DNA of 64,000 bases from a virus, in the IMG/VR virus record IMGVR_UViG_3300044959_000131, positions 64,001 to 128,000 of that record; one strand, given 5' to 3'. Positions within the stretch are counted from its first letter, which is position 1. Each line of letters opens with the position of its first letter. Below, piece by piece: positions 42,699 through 58,453 of the stretch. The position numbers were made by a program, and so were the translations under genes. The notes below the pieces were generated by a model. The model did not search any database and was not told the DNA's origin. It was given only the letters and a program-made list of their open reading frames with translations.

Positions 42699-42995
42699 TG
42701 GATGTTCATCTCTTGGAAGTCCGAGCCTTCGTTTGATGATCACCTTCGTGGTCATTGAGGTTCCTTCGGACTCGACTTTTCCTTGTGGAACGGTATCGTT
42801 CTTCGCGGCATACTGCTGAAAGAGATTCCAGGTGAGCAGCATCCTTTTGCCTGATATAGGTTCACCAAATCTGAACTTGACGATGTACACCAATGGATTG
42901 ACAGTGGTTTGAAGTTCGAATGAAACACTCGTTCCAAGGGCTCCTTCCATTGAATGGCAAAATGATTTGAGCCAAGCGAGTGGTGGCGGTATCAT
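42690..42995 (-). CDS. Hypothetical protein (up to 101 aa)
   Basis: Fills the gap between rnhB and terminase; start uncertain (42995 or 42950). Confidence 0.55.
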   Translation of the reverse strand: MIPPPLAWLKSFCHSMEGALGTSVSFELQTTVNPLVYIVKFRFGEPISGKRMLLTWNLFQQYAAKNDTVPQGKVESEGTSMTTKVIIKRRLGLPRDEHPAA

Positions 42996-45858
42996 GGAAA
43001 GAATGCTAGTCGTTTCTTCAGATGATTATGACCGCAGCAATCGCGACGTCATTATTTCTGAGAGTGGTGAGCCTGAGCTTCCCGAAGAGTGGGACTACGA
43101 ACCTCAGGTCTTCGATGGGTTTCTCGACGACTCACAGCTTGCCAAGAAAAGCTCCGAGTTGATCGGTGTATACCCTTCTCAATTCGTCGAGTTTGCGATT
43201 CGTATACCCGACAAGAAGACTCAGCAATTAGTACCGTTCTCTTTTGAAAAACGTAGGTATCTTCGACTCCCATACGACACCCCAGCGAAGAGGACGCTTT
43301 ACAAGTGCGGGCGACAAGTTGAGAAGAGTACATTGTTGGGGAACAAGTGTTTGGCGTACTGCTGCATTATCAATGCATTCAATGTTTTGTACGTCGCCCC
43401 AACGAACATGCAAACAAAGACCTTCTCACAAGACCGTTTGAAGGAGCCCATCGAAACGTCCGATGTTTTGAAGTCTTGGACAACCCCCAAACTCAGCGAC
43501 AACGTATTTCTCAAGAAGTTCATCAATCGTAGCCAGATTACCCTCCGCTACGCTTACCACAACGCAGACCGTACTCGTGGTATCCAGGCAGACCTTGTTC
43601 TAATTGACGAGATTCAAGACGTCATCACGGACAATATCCCAGTCATCGAACAATGTGCCTCGCACTCCACATTCAAGCTCTTCATGTACTCAGGAACACC
43701 GAAGAGCTTCGACAACCCAATTGAGCATTACTGGACCAACTTCTCGACCCAAAATGAGTGGGTCGTTCCGTGCGATCGCCACGGCGTTCCAAGTGACCCA
43801 TCAACATGGTTCTGGAACATTCTAGGTGAGGAGAACATCGGTAAGAAAGGTCTCATTTGTTCGAAGTGTGGAGAGCTCATCCATGCACTGAGACCAGAAG
43901 CACAGTGGGCTTCCATGAACCCAGAGGTTCGAAAGAAGCTGACTGAGCCGTATGAGGGTTACCGAATCCCTCAACTCATGGTGCCGTGGATGGAGTGGAG
44001 CGAAATTCTCGACAGCTACGCTACATACCCTCGTCAGAAGTTCTTCAACGAAGTTCTCGGGATGTCGTACGACTCAGGAACCAGGCCCCTGACTCGGCAA
44101 GACATCATCGACAACTGCAGTTCCGACATTGTCATGTCTCAAGAAGGGTTGTCGAGAATTCGTTCGAAGATGAGTGGAGGGATGGAGGTTTTTGCCGGAA
44201 TCGACTGGGGTTGCCACGACGAGGAGACACGGATTCTCACCGATAGCGGCTTCAAATACTTTCGAGACCTGACCGACAACGACAAAGTCGCTCAATGGGA
44301 TCCTGATACACGGTTGATGTCATTCGTGTATCCGAAGGTCCGAACGGTCCGTGAATGGGATAAACCACTTCTCCATTTCAAGGCGAATGGGTTGGACATG
44401 ATGTTGTCCGACCCTCATCGAATGAGAGTGAGACCTCTCAATGATGATGGGACGGGAAAGTGGATTACGGAGCCAGCGAGTAAAACCGCAGAGCGTGGTG
44501 GCAACGTAAAATTCGTTGGGTACGTCGATTGGGACGGGTCCGAAGAAGAGTACTTCGTATTGCCCAGTCGGGACCAAACTACTGGTTACAGCGGTAGTGA
44601 AGATCGTATCTACCGCATGGATGATTGGTTGGAATTTCTCGGCTATTATTTGTCAGAGGGTTCTATCTGCTTTGATGGAGATAATCCATCATGCATCAAA
44701 CTATCTCATCGGGAATCCGTAAATCTTGAGCAGGCTCGTAGGATTGGAAGTCTGCTACAGCGGCTCTTCCCAAATGATCTATCTACGATACAACACCCAG
44801 AGACTGGTTACATCGATTGGACAATCTACGGTAAACAGCTCTGGAAGTGGGTTCATGACCAAGTCGGAAAGTTCGACGACGAGAAGAGAATACCGAGGAG
44901 ATTTCTGAATCTCTCGAAGCGCCAACTTCGAATTCTCTTCGATGCCATGATGCTTGGAGACGGAGGTGGCGGCAAAAGAAGAGGACGTACCAATGGTCGC
45001 TACTGCTCGACTTCCAAGGGTCTCTGCGAAGACTTCCAGGAGCTTTGCATCCGCCTAGGACTCCGTAGCACTCTGTCATTGCATAAGAGGGCTGAAGGAA
45101 ACCGTAAGGCCATATGGAGAGTTTCTTGGTCTCCTGGAAGAGACTTCGAATTCAACAACCCCAAGCAGAGAGTTAAGAGAGTTCCATACAATGGAAAGGT
45201 ATACTGTTGCTCCGTTCCATCTGGATACATCATCACTGAGAGAAACGGCTGCATCGCTTATCAAGGGAACACAGGAGAGAACACGTTTTCTGTGATGGCC
45301 CTTGGTACATACTTGGATGGAAAATTTACCATCTTCTACATCCACAGATTCGAAGGACAGGAGGTCGAACCACTCGTTCAACTCGACCTGATCGAGAAGC
45401 TGATTTACTACTGGGACGTCAGGCTTGTCGGAGTCGACTATGGCGGCGGCTTCGATCGTAACGATGCTCTTGCTAGAAAGTTCGGCAAGAACCGAATCGT
45501 GAAATATCAGTACTCTCAGCCAAGTCAGAAGGTGCGATGGGACGAGGGGCTGCACAGATTTTTGGTCCATCGGACAGAGGTGATGACTGACATTTTCACT
45601 GCCATAAAGAGAAGAAACGTTTTCAGGTTCCCGACCTGGGAGCAGTTCGAAGACCCATTTGGCAGGGACATGCTGAACATCTTCTCCGAATACAACGATC
45701 AACAGAGGCAGATCCAATACAAGAAGAGTCCAGACGCAACGGATGACTCATTCCACGCCATTCTTTTCTGCTTTCTTGCCTCGATGCTTCGACACCCAAG
45801 GCCGGACGTTTTGGTGCCGACTCAGAAGACGAATAGCTCGATGGACCATGACAGCTAA
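42967..45858 (+). CDS. terL: Terminase large subunit containing one intein (about 610 aa after splicing)
   Basis: Variant Walker A CGRQVEKST, Walker B LIDEIQD, SGTP, FFNEVLG, nuclease GIDWG and terminal DDSFHA. Real start may be ATG 42994 or 43003. Confidence 0.92.
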   Translation: MSQASGGGIMERMLVVSSDDYDRSNRDVIISESGEPELPEEWDYEPQVFDGFLDDSQLAKKSSELIGVYPSQFVEFAIRIPDKKTQQLVPFSFEKRRYLRLPYDTPAKRTLYKCGRQVEKSTLLGNKCLAYCCIINAFNVLYVAPTNMQTKTFSQDRLKEPIETSDVLKSWTTPKLSDNVFLKKFINRSQITLRYAYHNADRTRGIQADLVLIDEIQDVITDNIPVIEQCASHSTFKLFMYSGTPKSFDNPIEHYWTNFSTQNEWVVPCDRHGVPSDPSTWFWNILGEENIGKKGLICSKCGELIHALRPEAQWASMNPEVRKKLTEPYEGYRIPQLMVPWMEWSEILDSYATYPRQKFFNEVLGMSYDSGTRPLTRQDIIDNCSSDIVMSQEGLSRIRSKMSGGMEVFAGIDWGCHDEETRILTDSGFKYFRDLTDNDKVAQWDPDTRLMSFVYPKVRTVREWDKPLLHFKANGLDMMLSDPHRMRVRPLNDDGTGKWITEPASKTAERGGNVKFVGYVDWDGSEEEYFVLPSRDQTTGYSGSEDRIYRMDDWLEFLGYYLSEGSICFDGDNPSCIKLSHRESVNLEQARRIGSLLQRLFPNDLSTIQHPETGYIDWTIYGKQLWKWVHDQVGKFDDEKRIPRRFLNLSKRQLRILFDAMMLGDGGGGKRRGRTNGRYCSTSKGLCEDFQELCIRLGLRSTLSLHKRAEGNRKAIWRVSWSPGRDFEFNNPKQRVKRVPYNGKVYCCSVPSGYIITERNGCIAYQGNTGENTFSVMALGTYLDGKFTIFYIHRFEGQEVEPLVQLDLIEKLIYYWDVRLVGVDYGGGFDRNDALARKFGKNRIVKYQYSQPSQKVRWDEGLHRFLVHRTEVMTDIFTAIKRRNVFRFPTWEQFEDPFGRDMLNIFSEYNDQQRQIQYKKSPDATDDSFHAILFCFLASMLRHPRPDVLVPTQKTNSSMDHDS
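44212..45270 (+). mobile_element. Intein with LAGLIDADG homing endonuclease in terminase (353 aa)
   Basis: Starts CHDEETRILTDSGFK, ends YQGN before Thr+1; LGYYLSEG and MMLGDG blocks. Confidence 0.9.
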
Positions 45859-47153: not shown

Positions 47154-48296
47154 ATGAATGAGTTCGAAAACTATCTCTTGAGCGGAAAGAATCACGCAAA
47201 GCTGTCCGCCGAGGCTCTTGAGTTAATGGGTAAGCAGGCGGCGAACCTCTACCTCGATGAGGGTATTCCTCTCAACGATGGAATCGCAAGGATTGCTGGG
47301 GAACATCCTGATATCTCAGCAGAGCAAATCAAGAGAATCGTTGAGTTCGCCAATACCGCAGTGTACCTGGCCAAGCACGACCAGAATAAGAATGCCGGAA
47401 GAGAGTACAGCTACCCTCAATTTGAACTTGCTGATGCAGGTCGAATCATTCAGGACCTATCAGATGGCGCCAGACCAACGATTGTTACCAAGACCGATAT
47501 CGATTATGCCCGTCAGGCAAAAAAGGAGAAGTTATCGTCTCCGGAGCTTGAATCCGCACTAATTGGTCTATTCAAGACGTCATCTGGAGAGTCTGAAGAG
47601 AAGGACTACAGCCCTGATACCGTTGTACATGAGCTGATGGCGGCAAAGGACCTTCTGGTTGGTCTGCGTGATAACATTGGGGACCTTTACAATCAGCATG
47701 AGGGCCTATTTAAGGAGGCCGCCTCCGACTTCTACAACAACGTCAAGACATACTTGCTAGACGGTGGTTCCTTTGGTGAAGTCGTTGCCGCACTTGGTAC
47801 TGTCGCAAATGACGATGACCTCAAACTTCATTTGGAGCCAGTTGTCGCGAGACTCATTCGAGAAAAAGTCGCCTCTGTGCAGGAGCTCAAGAAGCAGTAC
47901 TCTGAAGTCGAAAAGATTGCTCATCGTACGGTCGACCCAGAGCATCCAATCATCTTGTCGTACTCCGCCATGGTCCTCGCTGGTGAGGAGCTACAGAAGA
48001 CAGCAGCCGCACTTGAGGAGGTTGGAACTGAACTGAATACTCTCAACGGCTTCATCAAAGAAGCCTATTTCACGAAAGAGTCACTCGCTCCACTCGTCGC
48101 AGCGGCTTCCAGAGCCCTTCCTGCTATCGGCCGCTTCGCAGCCGGAGCCGGTCGAGGTCTATTGGGGCAGATCGGACGTGGTGCTTTAAACGAGTTCAAG
48201 AACAATCCAATCTCGACCATATCCACAGCCAAGTCACTGCTTCCTCAGAGACGGCAAGCTCCAACCCCTCCGGCGCAGATGAACCCCGGATACTGA
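47154..48296 (+). CDS. Probable head-associated protein (380 aa) with K-x-A motifs
   Basis: KTSS, KEAA, KVAS, KIAH and KTAA; Gly/Ala-rich basic C-terminal segment. Confidence 0.8.
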   Translation: MNEFENYLLSGKNHAKLSAEALELMGKQAANLYLDEGIPLNDGIARIAGEHPDISAEQIKRIVEFANTAVYLAKHDQNKNAGREYSYPQFELADAGRIIQDLSDGARPTIVTKTDIDYARQAKKEKLSSPELESALIGLFKTSSGESEEKDYSPDTVVHELMAAKDLLVGLRDNIGDLYNQHEGLFKEAASDFYNNVKTYLLDGGSFGEVVAALGTVANDDDLKLHLEPVVARLIREKVASVQELKKQYSEVEKIAHRTVDPEHPIILSYSAMVLAGEELQKTAAALEEVGTELNTLNGFIKEAYFTKESLAPLVAAASRALPAIGRFAAGAGRGLLGQIGRGALNEFKNNPISTISTAKSLLPQRRQAPTPPAQMNPGY

Positions 48297-48601
48297 TGCG
48301 TATGATGAAGAGACTACAGAAGATTGCGTCAAGTTCAGCAGCTCTTCGAAATGTCTTCTTACGTAAGGAAGCGGGCCTAGGTCGGGCCGCGGCAGGTGCG
48401 GCGAAGTACGTTGCCGACAAGGCACTTGGATTTGCTGGTAATCAAATCAAGAAACATGGACCGATTTGGGGAACCTTTGGATTGATTGGTGGTGGAATGA
48501 CGCTTGCCGAAACGCCCAAGGCTGTTCGGTCCACGTACCAAGCTTACAAGTCTGGGTTCAACCCGGCCCTTCATAGAGCAGAGCTTGGTCTTGATAGATG
48601 A
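48296..48601 (+). CDS. Small basic Gly/Ala-rich head-associated protein
   Basis: LQKIAS, RKEAG and WGTFGLIGGGM; TGATG coupling. Confidence 0.7.
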   Translation: MRMMKRLQKIASSSAALRNVFLRKEAGLGRAAAGAAKYVADKALGFAGNQIKKHGPIWGTFGLIGGGMTLAETPKAVRSTYQAYKSGFNPALHRAELGLDR

Positions 48602-48616
48602 TGTACGAGGACGAGA

Positions 48617-49249
48617 ATGACTACTGAAGATATTCTTACAGCTGTTTCTGAGTCCCATCCAGAGATGATGGCCAAGACGGCTAAAATCATTGCCATAACC
48701 GAGCGACTTTATCCGGAGTTCGTTCCAGGTATCATCTCTGATTTCGAGACCATTTGCTCAGTCGTCAATGAAAAGACGGCAGAGAAGATGACCGGATTGA
48801 AGCCTTATGCGATTGGTATCGCTGGTACTGTTGCAGGTGGTCTCTTAAGTGCCATCGCAACCGACCTCTACGACGCTGCCAAGCGCGGTCTCACAAAGGG
48901 ACGTAACTTCAAACGCATCATGGAGGCCAATCCAAATCTCAAGAGGGAAGTAGATAAGAAAACCCTCTTAATGGCATATGACACGCTTCATAGGTATGCT
49001 CCAGAATTTACTGCAGATCCGCTTCTCGGTGGAGCTCTCCTAAAGAACATCTCAGAGCTTCCAAACATGAGTCACAAGACCATTGTCGAACTAATTGGTG
49101 CGCAGAAGAATATAGCTGATGCCAAGAGCCGATACTTCTCTGAAATGTCAAAGCTTTCTCCACTTCTCGTCCCAGACAGCGGTCATACAGAAGTAAGATA
49201 TGAGGGCGGGGTTGAAAAGTCGAGAACGGTTAGACGTCCAGGTGTCTGA
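48617..49249 (+). CDS. Probable head-associated protein (210 aa)
   Basis: KTAK, KTAE and YAIGIAGTVAGGLLSAIA; coupled to the protease gene. Confidence 0.75.
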   Translation: MTTEDILTAVSESHPEMMAKTAKIIAITERLYPEFVPGIISDFETICSVVNEKTAEKMTGLKPYAIGIAGTVAGGLLSAIATDLYDAAKRGLTKGRNFKRIMEANPNLKREVDKKTLLMAYDTLHRYAPEFTADPLLGGALLKNISELPNMSHKTIVELIGAQKNIADAKSRYFSEMSKLSPLLVPDSGHTEVRYEGGVEKSRTVRRPGV

Positions 49250-52200
49250 TGAAGAAACAAGTTCAATTCAGAGGACATACAGAGTTTGGTGTCTTCTGTC
49301 GGTCGCTATTTGGAAGTTCAGGAGCGTTTGAGAAGATTGCTGGAGCTCCTCCTTTTGCTGATTGGCCAACAGGAGAAGAGCTTAGAAAGTACATCTCAAA
49401 GATTACCAAAGAGGACCGTAAAAAGTACGTATACGTTCTCGTAAACGCTCTCGGAGCTGGTGAGTACTTCGGTTGCTTCCCAGCAGGCTCCATTGTTCGT
49501 TCTAAGCGAGGAGATATCCCTATTGAGCATGTCGTAGTTGGTGACGAGGTTCTCACTCACAGAAATAGATGGAGAAGGGTCATTGCAACCAACCGCAAGT
49601 TTCATGATCTCGGGTTGGTTCATTTGGATGTCACCGGGGTTCCGCACTTGGCTCCGGCTATCTCAGCGACCCCGAATCATGAGGTTTTTGTCGTTCCTCG
49701 TGACGACTTGTTTCGAGCTCGTAGAGATATTCTCTACAAGCGTGGAGAGATGGATTGGAAATCCTCCTACAATGAATTTGTTTCATCTCTGAATCCAGAC
49801 TGGATGCCGATTGAGTTCATCCGCCCAGGTGACTTTCTGTTTCAGCCATTTCCGATTGAAACTCGGAATTCAGACTTTGCTCAGAAGTGGGGAGATCATG
49901 ACTTTGCGTACTTGATGGGACTCTTCGCGGCTGAGGGGTGTCTAGCAGAGAGGTACGGTCGGGATAGGAACAAGGAACGATCGGAGCTGGTTGAGAGGAT
50001 TGTTTTCGTCATAGGGGATCATGAAGATCACATCGTCAGGAATGTACAGCGCATTGTAGAGAAGCATGGGAGATCTGTGACCGTAAAAAGGACCCCAGAG
50101 ACCAAATCTATTCGCCTTGAACTTTGTTGGAAGGAGTTGGCTCAAGCTTGTTTGGAGCACATCGGCTGCCATTCAACCGAGAAGAGCTTGTCTTGGGACA
50201 TTCTCACAATGCCACATGGGTGGCAGGAGGCTTTTCTAGCTCCATATGTTGAGGGTGATGGACACTTTGTAGAGAACTCAAAGTTTGAGCGGTACAACGG
50301 CTCAGTGGTTATATCCACCGCATCTAAGAATCTGGCCTTGGACCTACGACTTCTCTACGCTCGTCTCGGGATCGTGGTATCTGTTAACGGACGGCATAAT
50401 ACCAAGGCCACTTGGTACAACGGCAACCCAATTTACACCATTCACATAGGAAAAACGTGGGCCAAAGACTGGAATGGCTCGACTAGGGCGTCAAGCTACA
50501 TCGATAAGGAACGTGGGTTCATCATTTCACCAGTGAGGAGTGTTTCGCATGAGAAGTGGTCCGGTGAGGTATTTGACCTGACAGTCGAGGAGGACAGTTC
50601 CTATGTTGTGAATGGGATTGTCGTCCACAATTCGAATATCAACGCGGACTACTTTCCTTGGAATGCTCTTGCGCATGAAGGCGACGACTACGGCTACAAA
50701 ACGTTCCTGAACGCCCATGCATTTCAGCATCACAAGAACAAGGACCCGACTAGGGCTTTCGGAGTCCCAGTTCTCTCGGTGCTGAACCACCCGATGAAGC
50801 GTGTCGAGCTCATCGTCAGACTCGACAGAGCAAAGGCAAAGGAAGAGCAGGCTGACGGCATCATCACTCGTATCGAAGCCGGAGAGTTTCCAGATGTCAG
50901 CATGGGCTGCGTCCCCAAGTACGCAAAGATATTGAGGAAGGATGGACGTATCGTTCACATCGAGGAGATCCGAGAGGGAGACGAGGTCATATCACATCGA
51001 GGACGCGCTCAGAGAGTCGTCAGCACGATGGTCCGCCGTCACAAGGGAACCATCTTTCACATCAAGCCTTATGGTCACAGAGACGCTCTGATTCTGACCG
51101 AGGAGCACCCTCTCTGGATCGTTCGTGCTGAGCAGATGGAGTGCCGTCCATCTTCGAAATCCATAAATCAGGGTCGGAGACAGCATGTATGCACCCCAGA
51201 CAGCCATCTCACGAAGAAGGGCTGTTCTGGCTGTTTAACGAGGCCCTCTTTCAAGTTTGAGTGGGTCCGAGCAGATGAGGTTTCCGAGGGAGACTATCTT
51301 GCGATGCCTATTCCGACCTTTGAGGCTGAACGAAAGTTCACAGCCGTCGAGGCAAGGCTTCTCGGATACTATTTGGCAGAGGGCTACGTCCTAAAGAACA
51401 ACTCTGGCGAGGCAATCGGGGTCGAGTTCTGCACCGGGCTGAATGAGATCGAAACCCATGACGAACTTCGTAAGCTCGCCACTCTATCTGGCCTCGCAGA
51501 TAAAGTCGTCGAGCGAGACATCCCTGAGCGCAATGGAAAATACATCGCCATCTGGGATCGGAATCTGGCTGATCTTTGCTCCACTCATTGTGGGAGTGGA
51601 GCAAAGACGAAGTTTCTGTCCGCCTCATTGATGGGGGCTGACGAAGAGACTCTACAGCTCTTCATCGGTGCCTACGCGAACGGAGACGGTGGGTGTTACG
51701 AGGGTTCCATCTACTTCTCCACTGCATCGGAGCAACTTGCTGACCAACTTCGAATCTTATTGGCCCGTCTGCGCTGCATCGCAAGCGTAAACGAGATTGT
51801 CCACAAGCCGTCGAAGTTGGTTAATACAGAGACCGTAGAGTTTCAGGTCCGTGTTGGGAAAGACTCGGCTTGGAGACTTACCGGTTCGAGGTTTTCACCC
51901 GGTCGGTCAGAGAAGATCTGTAACAAAAGGTTCTTCTACGATTTCGAGGGAACGACGTATTTGATGACTCCCATCGAGCGTATCGATGAGGTCGAATACG
52001 ACGACGATGTCTACAACTTTGGAGTCGAGAACGACGACAGTTATCTGATCGATGGTTTGGCTGTTCACAACTGTAAAGTTCCTTTTGACATTTGTTCGAT
52101 ATGTGGACAGAAATCCAAGACTAGGCTGGATTACTGCTTCCCACCTGGGACGCCAATTCTGATGGCCGATGGACAGTTCAAGGCCATCGAGGAAGTTCGA

Positions 52201-54273
52201 GTTGGTGACGAAGTTATCACCCACACTGGATCTACAAAAAGGGTCGTTCGTCTACTACCTAGCACGGCTCACGACGGGCTGATCAAGATTACGGCTTATG
52301 GATTTGGAGACATATTAGCTACTCCAAATCACCCATTCATGATTGGAAGGACAAAGACCGGTGTGAAAGGAGGTCGTAAGGCACAGCTCGACGAGTCGCC
52401 GCCAGATTGGGTCGCCGCAGAAGACGTTCAGCAATTCGACACTGTCTTTCTGCCAATTCCAAAAATTGAGCTCTCCAAGGATTCAAAATACAGCAATGCA
52501 CGCGTCGGGTGGTTACTCGGGCTCTACCTAGCAGAAGGGTCCCCAAGCTTCTCTCCTGGTGTCGCGCATCCGAAATCAGTCACGTTGTCAGTCAACGTAA
52601 GCGAATCCTTTGAGGACCGCGTCAAGGAAGCCGTAACTTTGATGGGAGGCGACGCCGCAGACGTTAGCGTCTGCGTATCAGAGGAGCGACACAGCAAGAG
52701 TATTCGAATCAACAATAGAGAGATTGCTGAGTGGCTTCTACTGATGGGTGGGCGTGGTAGTCACACTAAGACGCTCAATCCTGCAGTTTGGCATCTGGGA
52801 GAAGAATTTGCTAGGGGTGTTCTTCTCGGTTGGTGTGATGGAGATGGTAGCACTGGTGATAACGTAACAAGGATCGCAACTTCGTCTGAATCCCTTGCGA
52901 GGCAGATGCAACTTCTTGCTGCATCTTGTGGGATTCTATCAGGTCTTAAGCTATACTCTCGTGATACCAATTTCTGCCACCAGGATATTTGGTATCTCAC
53001 GTTCTCGGGAGATGCCTCGGCGGCTCTTCGTGAGCAACGTCCCCAGGAAGTTTTTGAGAATCAGTCCAAGCTCTTCTTCTGGAAGAATTACCTCTGCTCT
53101 ACTGTCAGAAGAGTTGAAGAAGTTCCATACCATGGAGACGTCTTCAACTTTGAAGTCGAGGATGACCACTCATACGTAGCCGGATGCTTTGCGGTTCATA
53201 ATTGCCATCACATGATGCCTCCTCCAGAGCTGAGGAGTGTATACGGACCGAACAAGATTCTCCCCGATGGCCGTCGCATCTACGTCATCAACACGATGCC
53301 GAAGTTCTTCGACATCAGTTTTGTATTCATTGGTGCAGACAAGACGGCGAAGGTGATGGCCAAGGTGGCATCCGTTGGAAACTCGGTTTGCCTTGGAGAA
53401 GTGTGCGCAATACCGAGACCGTCAGCCGTTGTTCACGAGCTCACTTCATCACCACCTTCTGAAGATGGATTCCGGAAGGTCGCTTCTGCAGATTGTTCTT
53501 GCGGATGTGGTGGGCCGTGTGATCCAATGTCAAAGCTTGCCGATGCGTTTGGTGCCACAAAGGTCGGGGAGATCATCAAGACCGTACCAGCTGGAAACTT
53601 TGCCAAGAACATCCTTCCAGCAATTGAGGCTTCAGAACCAGACCTACCAAAATCTCTTCTCAATGACCTGGCATCTAGGCACACAATTGGGGAGATTACG
53701 GGTCGCGCCGCCTCCCTTGGCATTGTGTTGAAGCCTGTTGAGTTCCAAAGGATTGTACTTGTAAGGATGGGAAATGGAGAACTGGCAGACGAGCTCGACG
53801 ACGAGTGCAACGTATTCAGACACGTCCAAGCTGTGGACGACTCAGTCCAACCAGACCCCCTACTTCCTGAAACTGGTCTCCTTCACCTGCTCCGTCGATT
53901 TATCTCAACTCGTTCGGGACTGGGGGAGCCACTCCGGATCCGGTCTGTTAAAGTTATGCTGGGCGTGAAAAAGCCTCTTCCCACCCGGACGCCGATCGAA
54001 CATCCTCTACTCGACAAAATCAGTGCCGCCTATAATGGGTATAGGCGGAACCTTCTGAAGAAACTTTCACAGGTCGAAAACGTGATCTACAACGACCCAT
54101 CGCTAAGAAAAGAGATCTTGGGGAATCGGTTGTCTAGCTTGTTCACAAAGACGGCCAACTCCCAAATCTTGTCTCACGATTCGTTGTCGTACATGATGGG
54201 CGCGTACTTCACGGATAGAGGCCTGTTGCTCAATACTGGCATTACTGATGTAGTGTCAGGTTTAATGGCCTAG
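49249..54273 (+). CDS. Prohead maturation protease precursor with three inteins (544 aa after splicing)
   Basis: Spliced extein reads ...GEYFG-SNINADYF...QHH...DVSMG-CKVPFDICSICG...DY-CHH...FFDISFV; lies immediately upstream of the scaffold and capsid genes. Confidence 0.82.
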   Translation: MKKQVQFRGHTEFGVFCRSLFGSSGAFEKIAGAPPFADWPTGEELRKYISKITKEDRKKYVYVLVNALGAGEYFGCFPAGSIVRSKRGDIPIEHVVVGDEVLTHRNRWRRVIATNRKFHDLGLVHLDVTGVPHLAPAISATPNHEVFVVPRDDLFRARRDILYKRGEMDWKSSYNEFVSSLNPDWMPIEFIRPGDFLFQPFPIETRNSDFAQKWGDHDFAYLMGLFAAEGCLAERYGRDRNKERSELVERIVFVIGDHEDHIVRNVQRIVEKHGRSVTVKRTPETKSIRLELCWKELAQACLEHIGCHSTEKSLSWDILTMPHGWQEAFLAPYVEGDGHFVENSKFERYNGSVVISTASKNLALDLRLLYARLGIVVSVNGRHNTKATWYNGNPIYTIHIGKTWAKDWNGSTRASSYIDKERGFIISPVRSVSHEKWSGEVFDLTVEEDSSYVVNGIVVHNSNINADYFPWNALAHEGDDYGYKTFLNAHAFQHHKNKDPTRAFGVPVLSVLNHPMKRVELIVRLDRAKAKEEQADGIITRIEAGEFPDVSMGCVPKYAKILRKDGRIVHIEEIREGDEVISHRGRAQRVVSTMVRRHKGTIFHIKPYGHRDALILTEEHPLWIVRAEQMECRPSSKSINQGRRQHVCTPDSHLTKKGCSGCLTRPSFKFEWVRADEVSEGDYLAMPIPTFEAERKFTAVEARLLGYYLAEGYVLKNNSGEAIGVEFCTGLNEIETHDELRKLATLSGLADKVVERDIPERNGKYIAIWDRNLADLCSTHCGSGAKTKFLSASLMGADEETLQLFIGAYANGDGGCYEGSIYFSTASEQLADQLRILLARLRCIASVNEIVHKPSKLVNTETVEFQVRVGKDSAWRLTGSRFSPGRSEKICNKRFFYDFEGTTYLMTPIERIDEVEYDDDVYNFGVENDDSYLIDGLAVHNCKVPFDICSICGQKSKTRLDYCFPPGTPILMADGQFKAIEEVRVGDEVITHTGSTKRVVRLLPSTAHDGLIKITAYGFGDILATPNHPFMIGRTKTGVKGGRKAQLDESPPDWVAAEDVQQFDTVFLPIPKIELSKDSKYSNARVGWLLGLYLAEGSPSFSPGVAHPKSVTLSVNVSESFEDRVKEAVTLMGGDAADVSVCVSEERHSKSIRINNREIAEWLLLMGGRGSHTKTLNPAVWHLGEEFARGVLLGWCDGDGSTGDNVTRIATSSESLARQMQLLAASCGILSGLKLYSRDTNFCHQDIWYLTFSGDASAALREQRPQEVFENQSKLFFWKNYLCSTVRRVEEVPYHGDVFNFEVEDDHSYVAGCFAVHNCHHMMPPPELRSVYGPNKILPDGRRIYVINTMPKFFDISFVFIGADKTAKVMAKVASVGNSVCLGEVCAIPRPSAVVHELTSSPPSEDGFRKVASADCSCGCGGPCDPMSKLADAFGATKVGEIIKTVPAGNFAKNILPAIEASEPDLPKSLLNDLASRHTIGEITGRAASLGIVLKPVEFQRIVLVRMGNGELADELDDECNVFRHVQAVDDSVQPDPLLPETGLLHLLRRFISTRSGLGEPLRIRSVKVMLGVKKPLPTRTPIEHPLLDKISAAYNGYRRNLLKKLSQVENVIYNDPSLRKEILGNRLSSLFTKTANSQILSHDSLSYMMGAYFTDRGLLLNTGITDVVSGLMA
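49474..50631 (+). mobile_element. Intein 1 with LAGLIDADG endonuclease (386 aa)
   Basis: CFPAGSIV...VVHN, Ser+1; LMGLFAAEG and YVEGDG. Confidence 0.93.
50908..52071 (+). mobile_element. Intein 2 with LAGLIDADG endonuclease (388 aa)
   Basis: CVPKYAKI...AVHN, Cys+1; LLGYYLAEG and YANGDG. Confidence 0.93.
52135..53202 (+). mobile_element. Intein 3 with LAGLIDADG endonuclease (356 aa)
   Basis: CFPPGTPI...AVHN, Cys+1; LLGLYLAEG and WCDGDG. Confidence 0.93.
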
Positions 54274-54335: not shown

Positions 54336-55004
54336 ATGGATCCAAGACTTGCAGAAATCTACGGAACCAACGAGGACATCAGCGACACTGAGAAGCTAGC
54401 CGCTGCCAAGCTGGCAGAGGAGCTCGCGGACGATGACGAGATCGACCTCGACGGAATGTCCGATGAGGAAATCGAAGCCCTCGCTAGAGAAGTCCTAGAG
54501 GGTGACGACAGCGACGATGACGACGAGTACGATGATGCCGCTGAGAAGGTCGCCGAGGCCGACTACCTTGGGCGTGTAATGGCACACGCCTACGTACAGG
54601 AACTAAAGAGCATCGAAAAGGCGGCTGCTCCGGAGCCGTCGGCGGCGACGGCGCTCGCGAAAAGGTCAAGGCTGAGAGAATACTACGGCAAGGGCAAGAT
54701 GCAGCTCGAGCGGGCATTGAAGGCCATTAAGTCCCATCCGAAGACCACAGCAGGAGTCGCCACTGGTCTAGCTGGTCTCGGTGCTGGTGCGTACCTGCTT
54801 AGCAGAAAGAAGGGGAAGCGTAAGCACGCCTCGGCCACTCCGGCGCTCGATGCACTCGCCGAGCAGAGGGCACTTGAGATTCTAGAGGAAAATGGAATCG
54901 ACGTAAACGATGAGAGCGATTCGAAGTACGATGTTCTCGCTCAGGCCGTTGAGTTACGTGCTCGGGAGATGCTCGAAGACGCAGGATACGAGTTCGAGGA
55001 CTAA
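54336..55004 (+). CDS. Acidic scaffold-like or core protein
   Basis: Highly acidic helices, KLAA/KVAE/KAAA/KHAS, and one central basic-hydrophobic segment. Confidence 0.75.
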   Translation: MDPRLAEIYGTNEDISDTEKLAAAKLAEELADDDEIDLDGMSDEEIEALAREVLEGDDSDDDDEYDDAAEKVAEADYLGRVMAHAYVQELKSIEKAAAPEPSAATALAKRSRLREYYGKGKMQLERALKAIKSHPKTTAGVATGLAGLGAGAYLLSRKKGKRKHASATPALDALAEQRALEILEENGIDVNDESDSKYDVLAQAVELRAREMLEDAGYEFED

Positions 55005-55019
55005 TACCAGTTCTGACGG

Positions 55020-55066
55020 TTGGGGATTCCTGGGAATTGGTATTTCTCAATCCCAGGAATCCCCAA
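55020..55066. repeat. Perfect 16-bp inverted repeat (long intergenic hairpin)
   Basis: TTGGGGATTCCTGGGA (55020-55035) and TCCCAGGAATCCCCAA (55051-55066) with a 15-nt spacer. Confidence 0.9.
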
Positions 55067-55084
55067 TCTGAGAGGTCAACGACA

Positions 55085-55345
55085 ATGCCCAAGTGGCATA
55101 TCAGTTTGGGTACTGTCTTGGGCTTCTCAGATGAGCTTCAGAAGATTGCGATGTCATTTAAACCGACATCTTTTGGAGACGTGAGGAAGGAAGTGTCGTA
55201 CGCGGGAACAGCACTAGCGAGGCGAAAGCCAAGCTATGCAAAGGTCAATAAACAGCAGACACTACCGGCATCGTCATCAGAGCTCACTGAGAGCGCAAAG
55301 ACTGTTCAACCACCCCCTGCGACGATGCCCGGGGGAGATTTGTAG
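55085..55345 (+). CDS. Small head-associated protein with GFSDELQKIA cassette
   Basis: GAGAGG site before ATG 55085; the track's 55037 start lies inside the hairpin. Confidence 0.7.
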   Translation: MPKWHISLGTVLGFSDELQKIAMSFKPTSFGDVRKEVSYAGTALARRKPSYAKVNKQQTLPASSSELTESAKTVQPPPATMPGGDL

Positions 55346-55351
55346 GAGACC

Positions 55352-56359
55352 ATGATGCACACCAAGCTCGCCGGTCACATTCCCCTGCACGAGATGATTG
55401 CAAACACCATCAATAGTGCTCGCAACAAGCTCGCTGCCGAAGGTGCGGAGTCAAAGGAAGAGGCCAAGAAGGTTCTTCCATTCATGAAGAAGAAGGAAGA
55501 GAAGAAGGAAGAGAAGGAGAAGGCGTCATCTGCCTTCGACTTCTCTGACCCAGATGAACTTTTGAAGCTAGCATCTGTTCTTTATGAGCTCGGAGACAAG
55601 CTTGCTGACTCGAAATACGTCGGCGGCGAGAAGAGTCAAGGTGGAGAAGTTCTTCCAACCGCCTCTGCTGTCCCAGGAAAGCAGCAATACACGAAGGACT
55701 CTTCAAAGTCTCACAACATTCCAGCCAGCACTCCTGAGAAGTCAACGTCTGACAATCCAGGAGCAGCGACCGCAACTGAGACGGATGACAGGCCAGGTAA
55801 GCTTCTAAGGTACCTACGAGCCAAATACCCAAATAAGGGTGTGTTGAGAACGTCTCCAGAAGCTGGTCAGGAGAAAAAGTCTTCAGCTCTAGAATACATC
55901 CTCGGTAAGGTAGCTACGTTCGGCGCTCAAGAAAAGAGCATGGGTGGGGAGACGCTGGACAGCGCCTCAGAGCAGGGTCCAAAGCCTCCTTCTGACTCGA
56001 AGGGTGGAAACGATGCTCGGAGCCACATCCGATCGAACAAAGCCGCCATCGATATGAAGAAGGTGGAAGGCAAAAACCCACAAAAGAGGATGTTATCTGA
56101 AGTACTGACGGAGCCAGCCCAATCGAAGGCTCATGACTCAAAGGTTCACGAGAATCTGCGCAATGCCTCCAAAGGGGGCGTGAAGATCGCAGTAGCAAAG
56201 GCCTTCCTTCAGAAGATTGCTGCGGATGAGTGCCATCCGCAGCATGAGAAGTTGAAGGAAGCGTTGAAGAAGCGTCTGGAGAAGAAGAGCATGGGTGGTC
56301 TTGGAATGGGAGCACCAATGCCGACCACTCCTCCTGCTCCGATGCCAATGGCTCGGTAA
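55352..56359 (+). CDS. Scaffold or core-like low-complexity protein with many K-x-A motifs
   Basis: 335 aa; Lys/Glu/Ser-rich; KLAG, KLAA, KASS, KLAS, KVAT, KIAV and KIAA. Confidence 0.75.
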   Translation: MMHTKLAGHIPLHEMIANTINSARNKLAAEGAESKEEAKKVLPFMKKKEEKKEEKEKASSAFDFSDPDELLKLASVLYELGDKLADSKYVGGEKSQGGEVLPTASAVPGKQQYTKDSSKSHNIPASTPEKSTSDNPGAATATETDDRPGKLLRYLRAKYPNKGVLRTSPEAGQEKKSSALEYILGKVATFGAQEKSMGGETLDSASEQGPKPPSDSKGGNDARSHIRSNKAAIDMKKVEGKNPQKRMLSEVLTEPAQSKAHDSKVHENLRNASKGGVKIAVAKAFLQKIAADECHPQHEKLKEALKKRLEKKSMGGLGMGAPMPTTPPAPMPMAR

Positions 56360-56377
56360 AGAAGAAGGGAGACCGCC

Positions 56378-56752
56378 ATGGGTAAAATCGGAAAAGTTCA
56401 GATTGGACAGATGATGAAAGTCGCTGCCCACTCCATCCGGCTCCTTTCGGAGGAGAACCAGCGTCTCAGAGAGAAGGTCGCTCAATTCGAGCACCGGGCA
56501 CGTGTCGAGAAGGTGGCCTCGCTCATGGAGGAGAAGGGCCTTCAGCCCGAGCTCTCCTTCGAAGAGAAGGTCGCAGTACTTTCTCAGAAGGACAACCTGG
56601 ATGTCATCGAAGAGGCCGTAAATCTCTCGGCGCCACAGTTCAAACTTGCCTCCGTCGATGAGGGAGGAAGAGTGACTGTGGAGGGTGGATCGGAAATGGA
56701 CAGCTCTGCTGCGGAGAACAACTTCGCAGCAGCGCTCGCAGGACTGGACTGA
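56378..56752 (+). CDS. Scaffold-like coiled-coil protein
   Basis: KVAA, KVAQ, KVAS, KVAV and KLAS within 124 aa; two genes upstream of the capsid gene. Confidence 0.75.
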   Translation: MGKIGKVQIGQMMKVAAHSIRLLSEENQRLREKVAQFEHRARVEKVASLMEEKGLQPELSFEEKVAVLSQKDNLDVIEEAVNLSAPQFKLASVDEGGRVTVEGGSEMDSSAAENNFAAALAGLD

Positions 56753-56797
56753 CCCATCTCACAGGTCTAAACATCAACTTTGAAGGAGATTTGAAAC

Positions 56798-57292
56798 ATG
56801 TCAGCACCACTTTTTCAACTTGTGACGGAGCTTCAAACCCTCACACGCCGCGATTTTCCTGCGGCTGATGAGACTTCTCTAAACCCACTAAGTGCTCGTC
56901 CTCTCGTCGATGGAGAGTGGCTCGAACTTGATTCGAACTACAAGCTTGCTCGTGGAGGCGACAACAACGCTGCAACGCCGGACGAAGGTTTGTCAATGAA
57001 CACCTTCGTCGTCCATACAGAGCGTGGCAGATATGACGTACAGGCAATCAGAAAGGTCAACGTTCTGATGCTTGGAATGTACGAAGCTGAAACTCAGGTT
57101 GTGGACACGACTGGACTAGCTCTTGGGGATGCCTTGACCGTTCAAGACATCTTGATTGGAGGTGTCGTTCGTCGTGGTCTGAAGAAGGCCGGAGCAACTC
57201 CGGGTCGTGTAGTTGTAGGATACGTCTCGAAGCTTTACCCCTCGGGTCCGGCCAAGGTTCGTTTTGTCCACATGGCGAACACCAAGTACTAA
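56798..57292 (+). CDS. Probable capsid decoration/cement protein
   Basis: 164-aa beta-rich Gly-containing protein directly before the capsid gene; AAGGAG site. Confidence 0.6.
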   Translation: MSAPLFQLVTELQTLTRRDFPAADETSLNPLSARPLVDGEWLELDSNYKLARGGDNNAATPDEGLSMNTFVVHTERGRYDVQAIRKVNVLMLGMYEAETQVVDTTGLALGDALTVQDILIGGVVRRGLKKAGATPGRVVVGYVSKLYPSGPAKVRFVHMANTKY

Positions 57293-57334: not shown

Positions 57335-58453
57335 ATGAGCGCTGTTCCAGCAAGAGTCCTCAACGACCTGTTCTTCGAAAAGGTCGCCACCACAGATGGC
57401 AAGGAGAAGATTGCCGAGTTCGGTGGAACATACATCCGAGACCGCCTGCGTGAGGTATCATTCGCACGCAAGATCCTTCCTCCTCAGCCGGTTCAACGGA
57501 CTGAGTGTCAGAGGTCTGTGAACCACGACACCTTGGTCAAGATCGTCGACATCGAGCCAAACTCGAAGGCCGTCGCCTTGACATTCCGTGGCCAACCGAC
57601 TGCTCGCTTCATCCGTGCTCCTCGTTTCGAGATTCCGTTCTTCACGATCTCGTCCGAGAAGTTCGAGAAGACGGAGCAGGAACTTCTGGCTTACGAGATG
57701 CCCATCACCAAGATCATCGAGGAGAACTCGGTGAAGGACATCCAAGAGATCGAGGACCGTCAATTCCTCATCTACGTCGAGGCGGCTGTTCAGGCTATGC
57801 AACTCGATGCCAATGGTGGGGTCCCGGCGCCATTCAATGTCTCAAACCTTGGAACAACTGTCGCTTCTTCAGTGGTCAAGGGTGACGGTGCAATTGCAGC
57901 CGGTGCAAACAACTTCGTCTCATACCCCATCCTGAAGCCGGACCTCATCAAGCTGAAGAAGCTACTGCACCGCCGCAAGCTGCGTGCAGAGAGGATGATC
58001 ATCACCGAGCCTGACTACGATGACATCTCGGCCTGGACCATCCAGGACGTTGGCATGACCATCGCTGGTGAGACCTCGGTCGAGGGATGGAAGGCGTCGA
58101 CAGTGGTCGGGTTGAAGATCATCCGCACCATCAAGACCGACATCCTTCGTGAGGGCAACGTGTACTGCTTCACGGCGCCGGAGTTCTTGGGCCGGTTCTA
58201 CGTTCTGAACCAGACCAAGTTCTACATCGACAAGATTGCGAACCTCATCACCTGGCAGTCGTGGGAGGACATCGCAATTGGCATCGGTAACATCGCGTCC
58301 GTTGTCAAGCTTGAGCTCTACGGAGGATCGGTCACGCCAGGAGCGACCGACCCAGGCTACACCTCCAAGCTGCCTGTCGATGAGAGCGACCTCGGTGCAG
58401 TGAACAACAGAGCTGATGCAGGACTAACGGTACCAGCAGTAGACCAGTTCTGA
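57335..58453 (+). CDS. Major capsid protein (HK97 fold expected)
   Basis: 372 aa after protease, scaffold and decoration genes; RLREVSFARKILPPQPV N-arm pattern; CAGGAG site; followed by a terminator. Confidence 0.8.
   Translation: MSAVPARVLNDLFFEKVATTDGKEKIAEFGGTYIRDRLREVSFARKILPPQPVQRTECQRSVNHDTLVKIVDIEPNSKAVALTFRGQPTARFIRAPRFEIPFFTISSEKFEKTEQELLAYEMPITKIIEENSVKDIQEIEDRQFLIYVEAAVQAMQLDANGGVPAPFNVSNLGTTVASSVVKGDGAIAAGANNFVSYPILKPDLIKLKKLLHRRKLRAERMIITEPDYDDISAWTIQDVGMTIAGETSVEGWKASTVVGLKIIRTIKTDILREGNVYCFTAPEFLGRFYVLNQTKFYIDKIANLITWQSWEDIAIGIGNIASVVKLELYGGSVTPGATDPGYTSKLPVDESDLGAVNNRADAGLTVPAVDQF

Follow-up and report, generated by a model that had tools for sequence, protein, structure and literature searches.

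Inteins usually reside in enzymes of replication, repair, nucleotide metabolism and DNA packaging, and genes that hold several inteins, like intein hot spots in general, are well known from ribonucleotide reductases (RNRs), DNA polymerases, MCM and Prp8. Proteases are also found among the hosts, as in the Lon proteases of Thermococcales. Three RNR inteins are present in Pyrococcus abyssi and one intein interrupts the chloroplast ClpP of Chlamydomonas eugametos (both as cited in PMC5050341), while the Prp8 hot spot comprises seven sites (PMC6805012). The intein hosts described in mycobacteriophages are the large terminase (TerL), portal, primase, methylases, a RecB-like nuclease, ThyX and a nucleotidyltransferase; no protease is among them, and all phage intein hosts are said to bind nucleic acid after splicing (Kelley et al. 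2016, PMC5050341). Here we describe a predicted head-maturation protease gene whose 1,674-amino-acid (aa) product contains three inteins. The gene lies in a 64,000-nucleotide (nt) stretch of viral DNA, positions 64,001 to 128,000 of the IMG/VR record IMGVR_UViG_3300044959_000131, to which we refer in full as the window.

This gene shares with archaeal and cyanobacterial multi-intein proteins the accumulation of several independent class-1 LAGLIDADG inteins at conserved positions of the active site of a single essential gene, and it shares with Prp8 and other multi-intein genes the occupation of different sites in different alleles. Unlike the multi-intein RNR and Prp8 genes, its host protein is a virion-maturation protease rather than a nucleic-acid or nucleotide enzyme, it belongs to large uncultured phages, and two of its inteins are separated by only 21 residues. 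The mycobacteriophage inteins offer a closer parallel in that homing is phage-borne, occupancy is patchy among relatives and several sites exist per host (TerL sites a-g). Cluster C mycobacteriophages are intein-rich and carry a homologue of this protease, yet that homologue is intein-free. We considered whether the intein reported in a cluster C 'hypothetical protein' (PMC5050341) might reside in this protease, and rejected this, as it lies in Alice gp247, about 100 kb from the homologue gp90. The ClpP intein likewise interrupts a serine protease, but both ClpP and Lon are unrelated protease folds with a single intein in cellular hosts, whereas the present case is viral.

We propose, at a probability of roughly 85%, that the gene encodes the only recognisable prohead serine protease of this phage, of the gp21/HK97/assemblin fold, as an inactive 1,674-aa precursor interrupted by three independent class-1 inteins, with splicing, protease activity and homing as predicted activities. 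The intein boundaries were read off the translation, and the junction motifs were then located by script. The intein and extein lengths (Table 1), the gap of 21 codons (63 nt) between inteins 2 and 3 and the intein share of the precursor (1,130 of 1,674 aa) proved exactly as the initial annotation had given them, and motif reading bore out its description of two LAGLIDADG blocks and a terminal HN in each intein. These blocks start at precursor residues 222 and 332, 704 and 806, and 1089 and 1192, and in all three inteins they end with an acidic residue (E-G and D-G). The first residue of every intein is Cys, and block B reads T-x-x-H in all of them (Table 1). Pfam searches of the precursor returned LAGLIDADG_3 at 103.5 bits over three stretches, far over its curated cut-off, together with Intein_splicing (84.3 bits; cut-off 35.8), Hint_2 (61.5 bits; cut-off 28.4) and Hom_end_hint (53.9 bits; cut-off 32.1). 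The start codon of the open reading frame (ORF) shares one base with the stop codon of the ORF ahead of it (TGATG), and a sharp break in base composition was not found along the gene.

The four exteins, when joined, form a protein of 544 aa that aligns with the nearest intein-free homologue, P0003 (543 aa), and with ten others with zero gaps at the spliced junctions GEYFG/SNINAD, DVSMG/CKVPFD and RLDY/CHHM (a slash marks the junction). Because the joined sequence aligns in this way to intein-free homologues, the intein pattern is not due to chance. Hidden Markov model (HMM) coordinates are contiguous over each junction, extein 1 is collinear with residues 1-75 of the intein-free homologues, and the spliced protein shares 80.6% identity with P0003 along its full length, a value that rises to 87% in residues 1-257, hereafter the N-domain. 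In the alignment, all three insertion points fall inside family-invariant blocks. Read from sequence, this evidence confirms all three elements as canonical class-1 inteins with a LAGLIDADG homing endonuclease, for which both splicing and DNA cleavage are predicted.

The insertions cluster around the presumptive active site. Intein 1 ends 33 residues ahead of a His pair, and intein 2 starts two residues past a Ser; these residues (alignment columns H109, H110 and S166) are invariant in alignments A1 and A2, with a His to Ser spacing of 56-57 residues, and the His-His pair and the Ser show no exception among 48 diverse sequences. Intein 3 follows intein 2 after 21 residues, within a conserved C-x6-C-x2-C-x10-C motif whose first and last cysteines are the +1 nucleophile positions of inteins 2 and 3. 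The four cysteines (C169, C176, C179 and C190) are invariant in alignment A1. In its extended form, C-x6-C-x2-C-x10-C(-x-H), the invariant motif follows the Ser across spliced residues 168-191 (nt 50899-50907, 52072-52134 and 53203-53211) and may be a zinc knuckle; we know of no similar motif in T4 gp21. Depending on the phage, the +1 position of an intein at site b, e or c (Table 1) is taken by one of the cysteines of the motif.

The identity of the host protein is supported by the predicted fold and by annotated relatives. When the PHROGs profiles were searched with each extein, the sole match was a weak one, of extein 2 to phrog_18299 ('head maturation protease', E 0.011). The same profile matched 39 of 44 intein-free homologues (best E 6.8e-9; P0003, E 1.9e-5), and all 44 matched phrog_2774, of unknown function. 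Searches with tblastn of P0003 against cultured phages matched its first 250-360 residues, approximately, to, among others, Vibrio phages D69, D148 and D181, Bacillus phage G gp19, Salmonella phage Arash gp222 (annotated 'structural protein'), Rhodococcus phage E3 gp77 ('prohead protease'), Gordonia phages Pupper and Stormageddon ('capsid maturation protease') and about 200 cluster C mycobacteriophages. The C-terminal extein searched in the same way against cultured phages gave no match.

A full-length model of P0003 was mediocre (mean predicted local distance difference test, pLDDT, 65), and its top match in the PDB was T4 gp21 (Z 5.1). The N-domain was therefore folded alone, using 48 diverse sequences from viral contigs, the first of which (L013) is intein-free and 89% identical to the spliced N-domain of the window. 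The L013 model reached a pLDDT of 76 and a predicted template modelling score of 0.70. VIA-align superposed it on T4 gp21 (5jbl) with Z 9.3 and a root-mean-square deviation of 3.0 over 135 of 165 residues, and on the proteases of varicella-zoster virus (1vzv, Z 7.2) and human cytomegalovirus (HCMV; Z 5.2). Foldseek likewise placed 5jbl first (probability 0.98), followed by a run of HCMV, pseudorabies virus and herpes simplex virus proteases. Among the predicted viral structures of BFVD, 71 match the N-domain at E<=1e-3, many of them named prohead protease, COG3740 or XkdF. A search of the family profile against PDB sequences found nothing (best E 1.8).

The predicted fold, the His to Ser spacing of about 55, the location in a head module and the propeptide-like N-terminus are features that the protein has in common with T4 gp21 and the herpesvirus assemblins. 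It differs from T4 gp21, a Peptidase_S77 protein, in lacking significant sequence or profile similarity and in possessing the extra Cys-rich knuckle, a long disordered linker and a C-terminal helical domain. Peptidase_S77 and Peptidase_S78 profiles gave no match on the exteins, on P0003 or on the genome, though the S77 control matched nowhere; the host protein is accordingly placed by fold class and not by family, that is, in the same fold class as S77 and S78 and not as a sequence-level member of either. Taken together, the models support a prohead serine protease of assemblin fold, predicted to be proteolytic, from a family that Pfam has not curated. The designation as prohead protease in the initial annotation is upheld by the gp21/assemblin fold match, by the PHROG and the annotated phages, and by the position of the gene upstream of the capsid gene.

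Beyond the protease domain of about 250 aa, the protein continues through the disordered linker into a helical C-domain of about 270 aa, which is modelled with pLDDT 75-93 in P0003. No family match was found for this C-terminal domain, and the ESM Atlas gave unnamed viral clusters only. Three Lys-x-Ala motifs are conserved in the family, at spliced residues 29-31 (E-K-I-A/G, with K29 and A31 in extein 1), 246-248 (A-K-V-A/S) and 285-287 (R-K-V-A/S). They fall where propeptide, protease domain and linker adjoin, at borders modelled with low confidence, and are candidate self-cleavage sites, where the corresponding T4 motif is (L/I)-x-Glu.

The linker also varies within the family. Many relatives (P0141-P0216 and others, 700-870 aa) carry a PF18823 inorganic-pyrophosphatase-like domain within the disordered linker, and some carry DUF5661, cupin or RRM domains instead; these resemble enzyme cargo that has been joined to the head protease. 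The linker encoded in the window has no such domain. The nearest relative of the C-terminal extein (P0002, 91% identical, from an 8.4-kb Joint Genome Institute contig) was called as a protein of 355 aa that begins M-M-P-P-P, three residues past the site-c junction, which suggests that its upstream frame is interrupted or ended.

The three inteins of the window are only 25-28% identical among themselves, and each is closer to its same-site counterparts from other phages. For intein 1 the best counterpart is the site-a intein of P0140 (about 73-74% identity), where the complete exteins of the two proteins show only 56% identity; for intein 2 it is the site-b intein of P0137 (72% identity), where the N-domains show only 64%. 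The site-c inteins of P0128 and P0130 share 59% and 57% identity, respectively, with intein 3. The converse is seen in P0122, in which the N-domain is 89% identical to that of the window and the site-b intein, of another lineage, only 36%. Within each allelic group, neither the splicing motifs nor the two LAGLIDADG blocks vary, and the frames are intact and free of stops. Since same-site inteins resemble one another and inteins and exteins are discordant, the pattern is that expected of three separate site-specific homing lineages still moving between phages, and not of duplication within the gene. In tblastn searches of cultured phages with intein 2, inteins were found in methylases and a tRNA synthetase and none in a protease. 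A conserved Cys-rich insertion (E-C-R-P ... H-V-C-T-P ... K-G-C-S-G-C), placed after block B and ahead of the first LAGLIDADG block, is also common to intein 2 and the five site-b inteins nearest to it; it may be a metal-binding DNA-recognition element.

Occupancy extends across the family. A search with the C-terminal extein found 613 near-length homologues, mostly of 540-570 aa and without a Hint domain, and 382 longer ones. The N-domain profile matched 3,272 cluster representatives at E<=1e-3 (1,273 at E<=1e-30). Among the best 150 of these 3,272 representatives, 42 have at least one insertion of at least 120 aa inside the catalytic core (in practice all are of 356 aa or more), a count that was taken, like the other occupancy counts, from the top of a ranked list and is not an unbiased frequency. 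Reading of the junctions assigned one intein to 31 of the 42, two inteins to 10 and three to 1. Six insertion sites are defined by the junctions, all in a stretch of about 120 residues that surrounds the invariant His-His pair and the Ser (Table 1). All 226 matching records from cultured phages give one uninterrupted match and are thus intein-free.

A second three-intein allele, P0385 (1,691 aa), is occupied at sites a, d′ and b. The triple in the window (a, b and c) is therefore rare, not unique, and it is the extreme of a family-wide pattern. The intein-free and partly occupied alleles for which it had suggested a search both exist in numbers. Our literature searches turned up no phage head protease described as carrying an intein, although coverage was partial and such an absence is weak evidence. 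We conclude that this protease family is a previously undescribed intein hot spot, in which the inteins are ordinary and the class of host gene is new.

The record is a 176,945-bp contig of an uncultured phage, estimated to be 93% complete. Searches with three Hint/LAGLIDADG profiles detected five inteins in it, three in the protease and one each in TerL and in the RNR, and no Hint or LAGLIDADG signal in its other genes. The initial annotation had contrasted the protease with RecA, DnaB, the polymerase and RNA polymerase; these do look intein-free, but the contrast is overstated, as two usual targets, TerL and the class II RNR, each hold an intein. The TerL intein is about 353 aa (aa ~416-768; junctions GIDWG/C ... 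YQGN/T), and its penultimate residue is Gly instead of the usual His. The fifth intein, outside the window, is in a class II (B12-dependent) RNR of 982 aa. The protease is present once in the record, as four extein pieces, and no second protease of the same family or of the S77, S78 or ClpP type was found in the 177 kb. With a single copy and no S77, S78 or ClpP protease, the phage appears dependent on all three splicing reactions for the one head protease that can be recognised in it.

In the window, the genes run in the order TerL, protease, capsid, and the protease homologue of Arash (gp222) is likewise upstream of its capsid gene, gp226. The ORF at 55352-56359 was rejected as the capsid gene, having no similarity to the Arash capsid protein; the capsid gene is instead that given in Table 1. 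Eight ORFs beside the protease (47154-49249 and 54336-57292), encoding 380, 101, 210, 222, 102, 335, 124 and 164 aa, have no Pfam match and no meaningful PHROG match, and the portal and scaffold genes are presumably among them.

Table 1. Features of the protease locus and its inteins, other intein-bearing and head genes, and the insertion sites of the family (nt positions are those of the window unless otherwise given; a slash marks a splice junction).
Feature	Position	Strand	Description
Precursor gene, head-maturation protease, 1,674 aa including three inteins	49249..54273	+	single ORF
Extein 1, aa 1-75, 75 aa	49249..49473	+	propeptide-like N-terminus and first strand, ends GEYFG
Intein 1, aa 76-461, 386 aa, site a, +1 Ser	49474..50631	+	Cys1, TPNH, VVHN/S; LAGLIDADG
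Extein 2, aa 462-553, 92 aa	50632..50907	+	predicted catalytic core; invariant His494-His495 (nt 50728-50733) and Ser551 (nt 50899-50901), precursor numbering
Intein 2, aa 554-941, 388 aa, site b, +1 Cys	50908..52071	+	Cys1, TEEH, AVHN/C; LAGLIDADG
Extein 3, aa 942-962, 21 aa	52072..52134	+	Cys-rich knuckle C-x6-C-x2-C; collinear with homologues
Intein 3, aa 963-1318, 356 aa, site c, +1 Cys	52135..53202	+	Cys1, TPNH, AVHN/C; LAGLIDADG
Extein 4, aa 1319-1674, 356 aa	53203..54270	+	protease-domain end, disordered Cys/Lys-x-Ala linker, C-terminal helical domain
Large terminase (TerL), 963 aa, own LAGLIDADG intein	42967..45858	+	phrog_675 E 1e-54, GpA_ATPase, LAGLIDADG_3
Major capsid protein gene, 3 kb downstream of protease	57335..58453	+	Arash gp226, 29% identity, E 3e-35
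Class II RNR with intein	G000:C1 ~24.6-27.6 kb, locus L007:601-3546	-	Hint/LAGLIDADG profile search
Site a			G/S before NINxD
Site d′			just ahead of His pair
Site d			just past His pair
Site b			SMG/C; commonest; two unrelated intein lineages
Site e			before C-S-I-C
Site c			DY/C

Several points weigh against the proposed reading. No Pfam family matched any of the exteins or P0003, and hhalign comparison of the family with T4 gp21, whether from a single sequence or a 27-sequence alignment, gave a probability of 0.6%, at most 1%, which is statistically null. With neither a Pfam protease match nor a significant profile-profile score, the protease call rests mainly on the predicted fold and the annotated relatives, and that fold was predicted on close homologues, which stand in for the window's own joined exteins. 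These nulls would also fit a protein of assemblin fold that is inactive as a protease and acts, for example, as a scaffold or cargo-carrier, as would the mere 'structural protein' annotation of the Arash homologue and the cargo-like domains inserted in many homologues. However, the invariance of the His-His pair and the Ser argues against this reading, and along the best hhalign path, whose probability is only 0.6%, the invariant His and Ser align with gp21 H85 and S140, respectively, which we take to be the catalytic residues of gp21. The conserved Lys-x-Ala motifs stand at domain borders as self-processing would give, and inteins typically target the residues under strongest constraint. We therefore regard an inactive assemblin as quite improbable. 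The remaining points concern splicing. The block-F position, usually Asp, is Asn in intein 2 (Y-N-F) and intein 3 (F-N-F) and in their allelic relatives; two large inteins are packed closely around an extein of 21 aa; a backup protease could sit in the missing part of a record that is 93% complete; and splicing, like proteolysis and homing, is inferred throughout. Were at least one intein no longer to splice, the product would be dead weight or that of a decaying gene, and the head would mature by other means or independently of a protease. Yet the frame of 5,025 nt is open, the nucleophiles, T-x-x-H and H-N are intact and invariant among allelic inteins of 57-73% identity, and the exteins retain every family-invariant residue, while the record holds no other protease of the same or of three other prohead-protease families. 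Such decay seems to us the least probable of the alternatives.

The location of the inteins raises a further alternative, in which they would act as a timer or conditional switch (responsive to temperature, redox or zinc through the +1 cysteines of the Cys-rich knuckle) and add an extra zymogen layer until late assembly. All insertions lie within the 120 residues or so that surround the His-His pair and the Ser, the +1 cysteines of inteins 2 and 3 are invariant motif cysteines in intein-free homologues, and prohead proteases need delayed activation, as in T4 gp21, which is activated by self-cleavage (PMC9958956). On the other hand, most family members and every one of the cultured homologues are intein-free, so that function does not require a switch; the pattern of occupancy is patchy and at odds with the phylogeny of the host protein, as selfish homing predicts; and insertion at active sites is general for inteins, which makes a regulatory explanation superfluous. 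We consider a switch unlikely, if the least unlikely of these alternatives. Slightly more doubtful is the stronger proposal that intein splicing is a working part of capsid maturation, whereby up to three reactions responsive to temperature, redox or zinc through the +1 cysteines might set the time of prohead processing.

We therefore favor the reading of an essential protease invaded by homing inteins, for which the following course may be envisaged. The 1,674-aa precursor would be inactive, its catalytic core being split three times: after the first strand (GEYFG/S), two residues past the catalytic Ser (SMG/C) and in the Cys-rich knuckle (DY/C). Each intein would excise itself by the standard four-step route and ligate its flanks via Cys1, the terminal Asn and the +1 Ser or Cys. 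The ligated 544-aa protease would then enter the prohead, probably via its C-terminal domain, and cut itself and its substrates, thereby maturing the prohead. During co-infection, the apparently intact LAGLIDADG endonucleases may cut intein-free alleles at the same conserved site, such that the intein is copied in; homing of this kind would explain why inteins of distant phages that occupy a common site resemble one another more closely than the proteins carrying them do.

The family offers material for study of both splicing and homing. It holds about six allelic sets of apparently active LAGLIDADG endonucleases together with their natural empty target sites, and the two inteins separated by 21 residues in one precursor are suited to a study of splicing order. 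For annotation, such 'hypothetical proteins' of 900-1,700 aa in contigs of large phages may be read as head proteases. More generally, a virion-maturation protease without a nucleic-acid role is among the most heavily invaded phage genes seen, with about a quarter of the best-matching family representatives occupied and up to three inteins per gene, which widens the known niche of inteins. This speaks for the view that a good homing target is made by active-site sequence that is conserved and essential, and not by a DNA-related function.

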